Assembly (NCBI GenBank): GCA_964652345.1
Contig: CAZZBO010000001.1
Span: forward strand, 3,892 to 67,891
Source: an uncultured Candidatus Saccharibacteria bacterium
GTDB taxonomy: Bacteria; Patescibacteriota; UBA1384; CAZZBO01
Reading direction: 5' to 3'
Length of the DNA stretch: 64,000 nt
A model generated the notes under the pieces. That model did not search any database. It saw nothing but the letters and a program-made list of their open reading frames with translations, and was not told the origin of the DNA. Position 1 is the stretch's first letter; each line of letters starts with the position of its first letter. Made by a program: the position numbers and the translations under genes. Positions 5,344 through 8,302 of the stretch are shown piece after piece.

Positions 5344-7016
5344 TTATGCCGCTATTTTCATATTTTCTAGCGTATTTCTTATTCGTTCTATTTCAGCATT
5401 ATCTCTTTCTTCCATAACTAGTCTCTCAATGATTCTTATTCTTTCATTAAAAATCTTCAACGCTTGCTCTTTATCTCTTTCTGAAATGAATGAACTCTTA
5501 ATACCATTTTTTGCAACTTCTTTAACATTATTCCAATTCATCAATTCGCTATGTCCGGTTAATAGAAATTGCGCATATTCTTTTGTTATATTTGTGCCAC
5601 AAATCGCATCGTTGTCGGTACAAATTGTTATAGGAATTTCTTGATTAACCAATTCTTGAACTGGATGAATTGCCATACCTTCAGTATTCAAAGGAATTGA
5701 AGAAATGTTACAAACGCCACAGATTTCTACTGTAGCACCACTTTTTTTGAGATGGTCTAATGTTTCCAGATTTGATACCGCTTGAACACCATGTCCTATC
5801 CTGTTAGCTCCCATTTCTAATGCTTCCTCAATAGATTCATTACCACTTTTGCCTTCGTTATAAGTCGGAGTTTCGCCTGCATGTATGGTAACACCAATCA
5901 ATTCACCTTTAATTTCACCCGATTTTATTTTATTATTATATTCTTTAATTAAATCAAACCCTTCTTTGAAATAGACTGGATTGTAGCCAGTGTCCTCTGG
6001 GCCAGCAATATCAAAACTGAATTTTTTGTCTGGATATTTTTGGGCAAATTCTACTGCTAATTTTGCATGCTCGATAACCTCTTCGGGTTTCCAGTCTCTA
6101 CCTCTATATCCAAGAAAGGTGAAGCCAACTTTGGGTGCTTCTTCGCCATATCAGCACGAGATTTTTCCATTGCTTCTAAAATATTTTCTGTAGCGACATG
6201 CGGATCTAAAGTATTTCCCAAAGCATCTCTCTGACCAATAACAGAACAACGGATTTCTGTTGTTAGTTGTCCTGCTCGTGTTGCCTCCTCAATAATGCCT
6301 TTCACTGCGGCTTGATAATCTTCTGGAGTTCGAATAGCACTTCCTATCGTTCCGTAAGCTTTGTTAAAGGCATCTAAATTTTCAAATCCATCCTCACCAT
6401 TGGTGTACGCATTTTTTATAGCCGCAATCTGTTCTTCATTAAACTTGTGAATTCGTGCACGCTCCAATAGAGTTTCCATTGGCACCGAACCCTTTAAGTG
6501 CTGGTGATTATTAGTTTTTGGCAAGAGCCGGGCTAAGACATAAGAAATTTTGATATTTTCTTGTTCTGGTGTGTTTTTAGTATCGGCAATAATCTCTCTC
6601 AAAACAACTCTGGCTTCTTCAGCTCTCGAACCAAAATCCATTGAGTTAATCCGTGTTGATATTTCACGATCTAATTCTTTTACAACTTCAGCGGCATGCT
6701 TAAAATCATCACGCAGAGTTTCTATATCAGTTTCGGCAAAATAGGATTTATAAACTTTGGCTTTCCTTTCAATGCCATTATACTCGGAAACTAATTCATT
6801 AAATAATTCCGCAAGTTCTTCTGGTTTTGCTGTCTTTTTTTGTTCTTCAAACGACCGCAATAATTCAAAAGCTTTTTTCGACGCTGGATTCATTGGATCA
6901 GCGACATATCTTTTAAGTATCTCGCTAATATCACTTGCGAATACAGAATTTTTGTTCTCGTTGATAATTAAAATCTGTCCAGGTCTAACAGTAACATCCC
7001 CTTGCATCCGTTGCAT
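5344..7016 (-). pseudogene. adenosine/AMP deaminase-family (amidohydrolase) gene with ~170-aa N-terminal extension, disrupted by a frameshift and with an IS inserted at its 5' end
   Basis: Motifs HQHLKG (HxH), DIAGPE, TIHAGE (HAGE) and ICTDND (TDDP-like) at canonical spacing. ORFs 6057..7016 and 5344..5901 are in different frames. My translation of the downstream frame is open back to a TGA at 6151-6153, so a -1/+2 frameshift lies within 6058..6150. The annotated ATG (7014-7016) straddles the IS left inverted repeat. Confidence 0.7.
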
Positions 7017-8037
7017 ACATATTGGACTTTTCTAATACATAATCCATTGGTACTTTATCATTAATTCTACTATGTATCCTTTGTGTGTTGTAGAAAAGAA
7101 GATAATCCATTAATAGGTGGTTGAATTGATCTGTATTGGCAAAGAGAGTCTGTTCATGATTGTTAATAAACTCATCTTGAATAGTACGATTGAATCTTTC
7201 AATGAAAGCGTTTTGTTTAGGATTTCTGGGATAAGTAAAGAAGTGTACAATCCCATTCTTAAGCATCTCTTGATCAGCATATTTTAAAAATTCACTACCG
7301 TTATCAGTTTGAATAGCTTTAATCGAAAAAGGAGCAACACTAATTAACTTAGAGATGAAATCAGCAGATGATTTAGAGGAAAGATGTTTGTAAGAGTAAG
7401 CAAAAGAAAATTTAGATTTGGTTTCAATAGCAGTAATAATGTATCTTCTAATACCATTATCAAACTTAACTATGGCGTCTAATTGAACAAGATCTCCTAG
7501 TTCATTAACTTCATAGCCAAAGATTCGTCTCTTAACTTGCCTCTGTCTCTTTTGGGCACGATTTCGATCGTAAAGATAGAAGAACCAATTATTACGTTTG
7601 ATGATCTTACCGATAGTGGAGGCAGAAATACACTCAAGGTCATTCTCTCTACAAAACTCATCTAAAAGAGGTTTTATCTTGTCTTTGGAGAGTCTTGGAT
7701 ATTTTTTTCTTAAATCATGGATAAATTCATAAATTTTAGTTTCAATATACATTCTTCTTACTTCCCTTGGTTTGCGAGAGCCATTAATTAAACTATGTAA
7801 ACTACCTCCTGACTCTCTTAATTTCTTCTTCCACGAATATATCGTAGAACGAGAGACATGAAAAGCATCACGAGTGGGATTAAGTCCATATTTATCAAAG
7901 AAGATAATGATTTTAATCTTATCTTTGATCTCTGGATGATCACGACAAAGTTTAGAATTGGTTATTATTTTCATTAACCTTTTATACCCCACAATGCCCC
8001 TGTATAGAAAGTAGGTATTACGACACAAATAACTCAT
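6985..8037 (-). CDS. IS481-family DDE transposase (HTH plus integrase core domain)
   Basis: rve-core motif IQTDNGSEFLKYADQEMLKNGIVHFFTYPRNPKQNAFIERFNRTIQDEF. N-terminal HTH. The last ~10 codons read through the left inverted repeat into flanking DNA. Confidence 0.85.
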   Translation of the reverse strand: MSYLCRNTYFLYRGIVGYKRLMKIITNSKLCRDHPEIKDKIKIIIFFDKYGLNPTRDAFHVSRSTIYSWKKKLRESGGSLHSLINGSRKPREVRRMYIETKIYEFIHDLRKKYPRLSKDKIKPLLDEFCRENDLECISASTIGKIIKRNNWFFYLYDRNRAQKRQRQVKRRIFGYEVNELGDLVQLDAIVKFDNGIRRYIITAIETKSKFSFAYSYKHLSSKSSADFISKLISVAPFSIKAIQTDNGSEFLKYADQEMLKNGIVHFFTYPRNPKQNAFIERFNRTIQDEFINNHEQTLFANTDQFNHLLMDYLLFYNTQRIHSRINDKVPMDYVLEKSNMYATDARGCYC

Positions 8038-8075
8038 TGGGCTCCTTTCTTATCTTGTAAGAGTCCAATATGTAT
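7015..8075 (-). mobile_element. IS481-family insertion sequence (~1.06 kb)
   Basis: Perfect 14-bp terminal inverted repeats: ATACATATTGGACT at 7015-7028 and AGTCCAATATGTAT at 8062-8075. Single DDE (rve) transposase ORF with HTH. No clear target-site duplication seen. Confidence 0.7.
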
Positions 8076-8095
8076 CGTAACTTGTGCATTATTTT

Positions 8096-8302
8096 TTATT
8101 TCAATAAATCATCAACTCGAACTTCCAATGCTTTAGCGATTTTTTGCAAAGTTCCAATAGTCGGATTAGTAATTCCGCCTGTTTCGAGCTTGATGATTGA
8201 ATTATAAGAAACATCCGCCAGTTTTGAGAGGCGATCTTGAGACAAGCCCTTGGCTTGTCGTAATTTCTTTATATTCTTGCCGATTTTATTCTCTTGTGCC
8301 AT
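8096..8302 (-). CDS. XRE-family (Cro/C1-type) HTH transcriptional regulator, 68 aa
   Basis: KNIKKLRQAKGLSQDRLSKLADVSYNSIIKLETG helix-turn-helix. Stop lies 20 nt from the IS right end, so it was probably immediately upstream of the deaminase gene before the IS inserted. Confidence 0.85.
   Translation of the reverse strand: MAQENKIGKNIKKLRQAKGLSQDRLSKLADVSYNSIIKLETGGITNPTIGTLQKIAKALEVRVDDLLK

Follow-up and report, generated by a model that had tools for sequence, protein, structure and literature searches.

A probable remnant of a three-gene regulator-partner-deaminase cassette, truncated beside an IS481-like element, in a Candidatus Saccharibacteria genome

RADAR, Cad1 and Kongming immunity converts adenine nucleotides to inosine nucleotides. 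In type III CRISPR systems, Cad1, an adenosine deaminase fused to a CARF domain, turns ATP into ITP (PDB 9c67, 8z3k). The RdrB protein of RADAR, linked to defence, is an amidohydrolase-fold deaminase that carries extra domains and acts on ATP and dATP (PMC9994260). KomA of the Kongming system is a PF00962 deaminase, with catalytic His residues numbered 15 and 17, that converts dAMP to dIMP and shares its operon with the gene for a protein resembling non-canonical-NTP pyrophosphatases (bioRxiv 10.1101/2024.12.20.629578). Here we analyze positions 5344-8302 of a 64-kb stretch of DNA from an uncultured Candidatus Saccharibacteria bacterium (hereafter the window), where a preliminary description had reported an XRE regulator gene beside a decayed gene of the adenosine deaminase (ADA) family. 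Both are present (Pfam HTH_3 and A_deaminase), and the features listed in that description are real, far beyond chance; its observation is partly confirmed and its interpretation partly supported. As we argue below, this region is very likely what is left of a three-gene operon encoding an XRE regulator, a partner protein and a deaminase.

The intact arrangement is found on metagenome contig L024, which is 95-96% identical to the window. Its XRE gene (297-503), whose product matches that of the window at 67 of 68 residues, is followed by a spacer of about 120 nucleotides (nt), a gene of 194 codons (626-1210), and an intact gene for a deaminase of 714 residues (1227-3371). Window 8485-8085 corresponds to L024 114-513 at 95% identity, and window 7007-5260 to L024 1708-3453 at 95.8%; about 1.19 kb in between (L024 514-1707) is absent from the window, and an insertion sequence (IS) stands in its place, directly after the XRE stop codon. 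The window therefore lacks the spacer between XRE and partner, the partner gene in full, and the first 161 codons of the deaminase gene. The same order of XRE, partner and deaminase occurs in a Candidatus Harrisonbacteria contig (L013) and in L022, where the XRE protein is 62% identical to that of the window and the deaminase gene 87-88% identical at the nucleotide level. The XRE gene of the window is intact (8302-8096, minus strand; 68 residues; Pfam HTH_3, 5.4e-16), and in the family as a whole XRE is confined to the Harrisonbacteria-like clade. Judged by these contigs, it is a genuine ancestral neighbour of the deaminase and the first gene of the ancestral cassette. XRE genes do lie upstream of the deaminase in these relatives, but not as the regulator-enzyme pair proposed earlier: a conserved partner of about 180 residues is encoded between them, and where the XRE stop codon was supposed to have been 20-40 nt from the deaminase start before the IS inserted, L024 has both the spacer and the 194-codon gene.

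The IS (about 1.08 kb; 7004..8087, minus strand) is delimited by the break in homology to L024, which ends at window 8085 and restarts at about 7003-7007, and by terminal inverted repeats of about 25 nt read from the sequence (8087-8062, GCACAAGTTACGATACATATTGGACT, and an imperfect mate at 7028-7004); its ends are uncertain by about 4 nt. It encodes an rve-type transposase of 350 residues (8037-6985, minus strand; Pfam rve_3, 9e-15; rve, 2e-8; HTH_28/32). The best NCBIfam match of the transposase is IS481 (NF033577, 3.1e-49), at 168 bits against a cut-off of 224, with IS3 at 89 bits. The single open reading frame (ORF) for an rve-type DDE transposase, the inverted repeats of about 25 nt and the one-sided loss of flanking DNA resemble an IS481 element with an adjacent deletion, whereas the score below the cut-off and the lack of a visible target-site duplication differ from the family. 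Such a missing duplication would be expected if a deletion beside the IS took away one flank. As the preliminary description had stated, the transposase frame reads through: it extends about 19 nt beyond the end of the IS, with its last six codons and stop in deaminase-derived DNA. The ATG codons at 7016 and 7007, one of which had been taken for a deaminase start codon straddling the inverted repeat, sit within the right inverted repeat; they are IS-derived and do not represent the native start of the deaminase. The IS occurs once in the window, and no copy of the deleted segment (the 5' codons of the deaminase and the partner gene) was found elsewhere in the 64 kb. An inversion in place of a deletion was considered and rejected, as the window holds neither a second IS copy nor a relocated 5' fragment.

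What remains of the deaminase gene lies in two fragments. The first (7003-6149, minus strand), defined by tblastn, the L024 alignment and a structural model, spans residues ~162-446 of 714; by the limits of the model it runs from the rear of the second beta subdomain through the helical bundle to half-way along the barrel, including the motif HQHLKG, and it is 95.8% identical in nucleotides to L024 from 1708 onward. The second (6148-5344, minus strand, in the -1 frame), defined by translation and tblastn, comprises the other half of the barrel, including HAGE, RIGHG and TDND, and the C-terminal helix, and ends in MKIAA. The closest full-length homologue in the protein search, P0001 (714 residues), aligns to the window over residues 162-711 only; in tblastn its residues 162-459 fall on window 7004-6111 (88%) and its residues 448-711 on window 6147-5356 (93%). 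The joined fragments match Pfam A_deaminase (2.2e-35 over residues 166-519), and the HxH (here HQH), HAGE, GHG (in RIGHG) and TDDP-like (here TDND) motifs, all but the GHG already noted in the preliminary description, are kept across the two. Given that the window copy starts inside the second beta subdomain, the N-terminal extension of about 170 residues described earlier is a real extra region, but only the rear half of a module of about 320 residues.

The two fragments are separated by a frameshift. When the DNA is aligned with gaps to L013, L004 and L024, one T proves to be missing at 6148 (minus strand), within the interval 6058-6150 where a frameshift had been predicted; the window reads GCTGATA-TGG where L013 and L024 read GCTGATATTGG, and the missing T belongs to a TT pair, with no long homopolymer. 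Both lesions named earlier, the frameshift and the IS, are thus real, but the gene is truncated and not merely interrupted, since its homologues have about 714 residues. With the catalytic barrel split between two fragments and half of the N-terminal module gone, the remnant cannot encode the enzyme. The public record annotates the N-terminal fragment as a protein of its own (P0023, 316 residues). Separately, a C-terminal -AA, often [LVI]AA, is found in 12 of 39 family members, and the window copy (MKIAA, 5344-5360) and L024 (MKEAA, 3360-3371) share it; this ending can be likened to the degron by which ClpX recognises the SsrA tag, and the enzyme may thus be under proteolytic control.

A search over 5.8 billion proteins returned about 45 full-length homologues of 697-783 residues, about 160 residues more than the window protein as reconstructed. 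P0001 was modelled with AlphaFold2 from an alignment of 39 homologues (predicted local distance difference test score 90, predicted template modelling score 0.90). The model resolves the N-terminal region into a disordered head (1-19), two beta subdomains (~29-121 and ~135-200) and a helical bundle (201-321), followed by the deaminase barrel (324-665) and a long C-terminal helix (670-713). In the model, the beta subdomains and the bundle make up a module of about 320 residues ahead of the catalytic barrel. The barrel has the traits of the PF00962 superfamily, with the HxH, HAGE, GHG and Asp zinc and catalytic residues; HQHLKG occurs in 38 of 39 members, with HQHIKG in the remaining one, and TDND in 37 of 39. 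The family is patchy, with members in candidate-phyla-radiation bacteria, Gastranaerophilales, Endomicrobia and Elusimicrobiaceae. Some homologues (P0037, P0044 and L018 8001-10088) have W where Gly is otherwise invariant, and translation table 11 breaks their genes into pieces; this points to hosts that read UGA as Gly (code 25, of the Gracilibacteria/Absconditabacteria type).

In ADA structures, the Asp that follows the HxH motif contacts the ribose 5'-OH. In alignments, the Lys of HQHLKG takes the position of the Asp in the HRHLDG motif of bacterial Add (6n9m, which has TDDP) and of the Asn in ADAL1. A Lys in place of the Asp that binds the ribose 5'-OH suggests a phosphorylated substrate. 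Genes for nucleotide pyrophosphohydrolases recur directly downstream of the deaminase in unrelated contexts: a MazG-like gene in L001, a NUDIX gene in L013/L022, and HD_4 in L027. In L028 the downstream gene (116 residues) has an HD-like motif read by eye, with no match in Pfam. Because of the invariant Lys and these downstream genes, an adenine nucleotide is the likely substrate, and the enzyme is most likely a zinc deaminase that would act on such a nucleotide and not on adenosine. In the profile search, bacterial Add was the best match among PDB sequences (6n9m, 80 bits), with Cad1 at 55 bits; the best NCBIfam model, the aden_deam equivalog TIGR01430, gave 130.7 bits against a cut-off of 216.55, and the other ADA equivalogs were also far below their cut-offs. 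The enzyme belongs to an uncharacterised and undescribed branch of the ADA superfamily.

How do the known deaminase systems compare? The window enzyme is not recognised as RdrB type, and no RdrA AAA+ ATPase was found in window 1-16 kb or beside the homologues in L001-L036; the absence of a partner ATPase, already pointed out in the preliminary description, holds, while the likeness to RdrB that it suggested does not. Cad1 has a deaminase domain of the same type. In contrast to Cad1, there is no CARF domain here; positions 1-230 of the PADLOC profile are unmatched, and the N-terminal region is modelled as beta subdomains and helices. No cas genes appear in the Pfam neighbour lists of L001, L004, L006, L007 and L008-L012. 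KomA resembles the present enzyme as an adenine-nucleotide deaminase with a pyrophosphatase-like neighbour, given the MazG, NUDIX and HD genes that recur downstream here, but with its catalytic His residues at 15 and 17 it apparently has no comparable N-terminal extension. Neither KomB HAM1 (PF01725) nor KomC SIR2 (PF13289) is among the neighbours of the family loci inspected, and Kongming has no counterpart to the XRE or partner protein of the present cassette. Classical ADA and ADAL1/MAPDA (N6-methyl-AMP deaminase) differ by the lack of the N-terminal module of about 320 residues and of the long C-terminal helix, and also in the pocket, with Asp (ADA) or Asn (ADAL1) where HQHLKG has Lys and TDDP where this family has TDND; the family scores below every NCBIfam equivalog cut-off. 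The locus is not RADAR-like, and it has only the deaminase barrel in common with Cad1 and KomA.

The partner gene lies upstream of the enzyme gene in six lineages (L001; L004; L006; L007/L017/L019/L034; L013/L022; L024), with a gap of 11-19 nt in five of them and of 133 nt in L007. The protein has about 170-290 residues across relatives, and about 180-190 in the cassettes of the L024 and Harrisonbacteria type; in P0010 (875 residues) it is fused to the N-terminus of the enzyme. Partner and enzyme probably bind each other, given the translational coupling of their genes and the natural fusion in this homologue. Against the viral structures of BFVD, matches to the partner were limited to four uncharacterised proteins and a weak hit to a 'PGDYG protein'. 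We considered that the partner might be homologous to the N-terminal module, as their beta-strand patterns are similar, and rejected this at an hhalign probability of 0.3%. Two loci with a partner-family gene and no deaminase may be mentioned here: in L010 (5171-8543) the gene is divergent from a gene for a MAP3K_TRAF_bd/TPR-S protein of 829 residues, and in L008 (6335-10875) it adjoins a serine recombinase, followed by a 413-residue unknown protein and an HD-domain protein.

The N-terminal module has a wider distribution. Searching 1.84 billion representatives with a profile of the module retrieved 71 proteins, and no source offered names for the carriers of the module. Its beta part also occurs in about 50 proteins of 450-750 residues outside the deaminase family, and 10 of 10 that were scanned had no informative domain. 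The whole module with the deaminase is embedded in giant proteins of 1042-2535 residues, and in some genomes the module sits in proteins of 1.7-3.2 kaa; ORFs of 3224 residues in L016 (Endomicrobia) and 3033 residues in L020 (Elusimicrobiaceae) carry the module as well, with N-termini that resemble signal peptides. The giant P0144 has a C-terminal Zeta_toxin domain (a Zeta_toxin/AAA_33 P-loop kinase, residues 1876-2043), and the gene next to the giant P0147 of L036 (8268-11045) begins with Zeta_toxin/AAA_33. The giant ORFs with module and deaminase, of 2.5-3.2 kaa, are represented by L016 2766-12440, L020 3858-12959 and 12965-19042, and L036 520-8127 (an unclassified metagenome contig); no further Pfam domain was detected in those of L016, L020 and L036, and in L020 there are paralogous neighbours that share this N-terminus. 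Both the module and the partner appear to be new, as far as their sequences tell.

We inspected about 25 loci of relatives. Their contexts are varied and mostly housekeeping: in L001 the locus is flanked by ftsW and murG, in L004 it neighbours a Rep gene, a transposase and a serine recombinase, in L006 it is surrounded by small unknown ORFs, and in L007 anti-sigma and glycosyltransferase genes are close by. Recombinases or transposases adjoin the enzyme gene in L004 and, in L008, a partner-family gene only. Neither the enzyme family nor the partner turned up a relative when IMG/VR viral contigs were scanned, and hence there is no sign of a phage-borne cassette. Nothing relevant came out of a literature search on deaminase toxins of Patescibacteria.

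On the minus strand of the window the order is tRNA-Arg, tRNA-Ser, a 73-nt repeat, XRE, the IS, the two deaminase fragments, a GC-rich spacer with the second repeat, and a restriction-modification (R-M) pair. The two tRNA genes, both upstream of the cassette, are tRNA-Ser(TGA) at 8552-8641 and tRNA-Arg(GCG) at 8656-8731 (minus strand; ARAGORN and Rfam). An imperfect palindrome (8288..8337; inverted repeat I4, with overlapping 30-nt arms that are 77% complementary) covers the XRE start and promoter region, near a weak sigma-70-like site at 8357-8328 on the minus strand, and could serve as the operator. The XRE protein resembles the helix-turn-helix (HTH) domains of HipB, PezA and MqsA-type antitoxins, and also the PADLOC capH and control proteins. 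The adjoining type II R-M pair noted in the preliminary description (2661..5035, minus strand; Pfam and PADLOC) is context, outside the cassette. It consists of an N6/N4 methyltransferase of 531 residues (5035-3440, minus strand; Pfam N6_N4_Mtase, 1.5e-12; the single PADLOC model MTase_II, 1.5e-238) and a TdeIII-family endonuclease of 260 residues (3443-2661, minus strand; Pfam RE_TdeIII, 2.8e-94); the two ORFs overlap by 4 nt and the pair is apparently intact. These are the sole defence genes near the window copy, and its defence association is weak.

The bracketing repeats reported earlier are also there: a 73-nt direct repeat, 93% identical and present in only two copies in the 64 kb, exactly brackets the remnant, at 5091-5163 and 8408-8479. 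The upstream copy (8408..8479) contains the hairpin CGTATTTTGCAAAGCAAAATACG, and the downstream copy (5091..5163) lies within a GC-rich structured spacer (5040-5343; RNA fold z = -4.65). Homology to L024 starts at window 8485, the outer edge of the repeat, and GC-rich hairpin elements of a related type flank the cassette in L013, L022 and L024. The bracketing and the flanking elements hint that the cassette may move as a unit; paired terminators are an equally simple reading of the repeats. GC-rich, strongly structured spacers interrupt the AT-rich coding DNA of the window at 5040-5343, 1551-1590 and 8408-8520, and the hairpin GCGAGGCGGAA...TTCCGCCTCGC is present again, inverted, at 1556-1586. 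Rfam, run on the whole window at gathering thresholds and on 1-9200 at E-value thresholds, returned the two tRNAs only; the GC-rich spacers match no family. Between two of the spacers, downstream of the R-M pair, an ORF of 137 codons without a family match lies at 1872-2285 (within 1428-2660).

We have high confidence in the structural and evolutionary part of the explanation that joins these observations: the locus is a cassette remnant, truncated by an IS and frameshifted. An IS481-like element and an adjacent deletion have replaced the spacer, the partner gene and deaminase codons 1-161, and the remaining frame has been split by the loss of 1 nt at 6148, either later or independently. In the intact cassette, XRE would probably repress the operon through the palindrome at its own start, and the partner, a predicted double small-beta-barrel protein, would probably bind the enzyme. 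Of the functional readings we favour, with somewhat less than even weight, the tentative proposal that the cassette is an accessory conflict module that moves horizontally. Its enzyme would be an A-to-I nucleotide deaminase under regulation, serving as toxin or as effector of defence, while the N-terminal module and the partner would have the part of regulator or sensor. More doubtful, and put forward as a possibility, is the wider idea that the intact cassette of L024 and L013/L022 could represent a new nucleotide-deaminase conflict system controlled by the N-terminal module and the PGDYG-like partner, that ultra-small candidate-phyla-radiation bacteria could employ it for defence or as a toxin, that the module could be reused as a cargo domain in giant secreted effectors of Elusimicrobia and other lineages, and that the window copy could have been recently disarmed.

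Several observations weigh against this explanation. Its functional part draws entirely on gene neighbourhood and motifs. The N-terminal module and the partner match nothing in Pfam, NCBIfam, PADLOC, PHROGs or PDB sequences, and PADLOC recognises in the enzyme only a generic deaminase domain (the deaminase half of the Cad1 model). None of the relatives' loci inspected lies in a recognisable defence island. The partner family occurs without the enzyme in L008-L012, and the enzyme without a partner gene in Gastranaerophilales, Endomicrobia and Elusimicrobiaceae; since each is found without the other, their pairing is not obligatory. The 1-nt deletion at 6148 could be an assembly error, in which case the IS junction and the large deletion would stand regardless. 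With the frame repaired, the ratio of nonsynonymous to synonymous substitution rates (dN/dS) is 0.26 between the window and L024 against 0.05-0.07 among intact copies, a measure that is noisy on so short a branch; the window has six unique amino-acid changes and L024 three. The raised ratio and the extra substitutions fit a real and recent relaxation of constraint.

These last figures bear on a very unlikely alternative, in which the frameshift and possibly the junctions are artefacts of a metagenome-type assembly and a truncated but catalytically whole deaminase is made from the IS-borne ATG. A single-base indel is the kind of lesion that would suit it, and every catalytic motif is intact over the two fragments. 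But the missing T lies in a TT pair and not in a long homopolymer, P0023 stands on the public record as a separate N-terminal fragment, the substitution pattern fits real decay, and the partner gene and 161 codons would be gone even without the frameshift. Scarcely credible is the original picture of a two-gene XRE-deaminase pair, in which the IS simply landed between the stop codon of XRE and the start codon of the deaminase and the enzyme is an RdrB-type ATP/dATP deaminase: XRE is indeed an ancestral neighbour, the barrel has a large extra N-terminal region and an R-M system adjoins it, but the picture is refuted on both gene order and RdrB membership.

There are two main alternatives, a salvage enzyme of accessory character and a toxin-antitoxin system in three parts. 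Candidate-phyla-radiation bacteria depend on salvage, and an ordinary purine-salvage add gene hit by an IS, with module and partner as lineage-specific decorations that have no role in conflict, would agree with bacterial Add and aden_deam being the best matches in PDB sequences and NCBIfam and with the housekeeping genes around several relatives, such as ftsW and murG in L001. We consider it unlikely. The family is not canonical Add: scores fall far below the equivalog cut-offs (130.7 against 216.55), Lys invariably replaces the ribose-binding Asp, and TDND replaces TDDP. The family is moreover patchy across unrelated phyla, variable in context and found beside mobile elements; its module sits within giant multi-domain proteins, one of them with Zeta_toxin, and the gene is dispensable here. 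In a toxin-antitoxin system, XRE would be the regulator, the partner the antitoxin and the deaminase a toxin that poisons the nucleotide pool, disarmed in the window. The order of regulator, small protein and large enzyme, the gaps of 11-19 nt in five of six lineages and the antitoxin-like HTH of XRE all point this way, and a loss of the partner along with the N-terminus of the enzyme, with a frameshift afterwards, is compatible with selection against a toxin that has lost its guard. It is weakened by the partner-enzyme fusion in P0010, by enzymes that lack the partner (Gastranaerophilales, Elusimicrobia) and partners that lack the enzyme, and by the partner matching no known antitoxin, so that we rate it as unlikely, with a small but real chance of being correct.

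The window locus itself is a pseudogene, and its value lies in the conserved, unannotated family to which it leads: a deaminase of about 714 residues with a new module of about 320 residues, a pocket altered by an invariant Lys, a dedicated partner that is sometimes fused to it, and an XRE gene in one clade. It also illustrates that a deletion beside an IS can mislead a reading from sequence only, by setting a regulator beside a truncated enzyme and supplying a false start codon. If the proposed conflict function is true, the family would be a fourth, structurally distinct architecture of deaminase immunity, concentrated in candidate-phyla-radiation bacteria and reused in giant proteins beside zeta-toxin-like kinases, and it would offer a testable handle on the conflict systems of episymbiotic bacteria.

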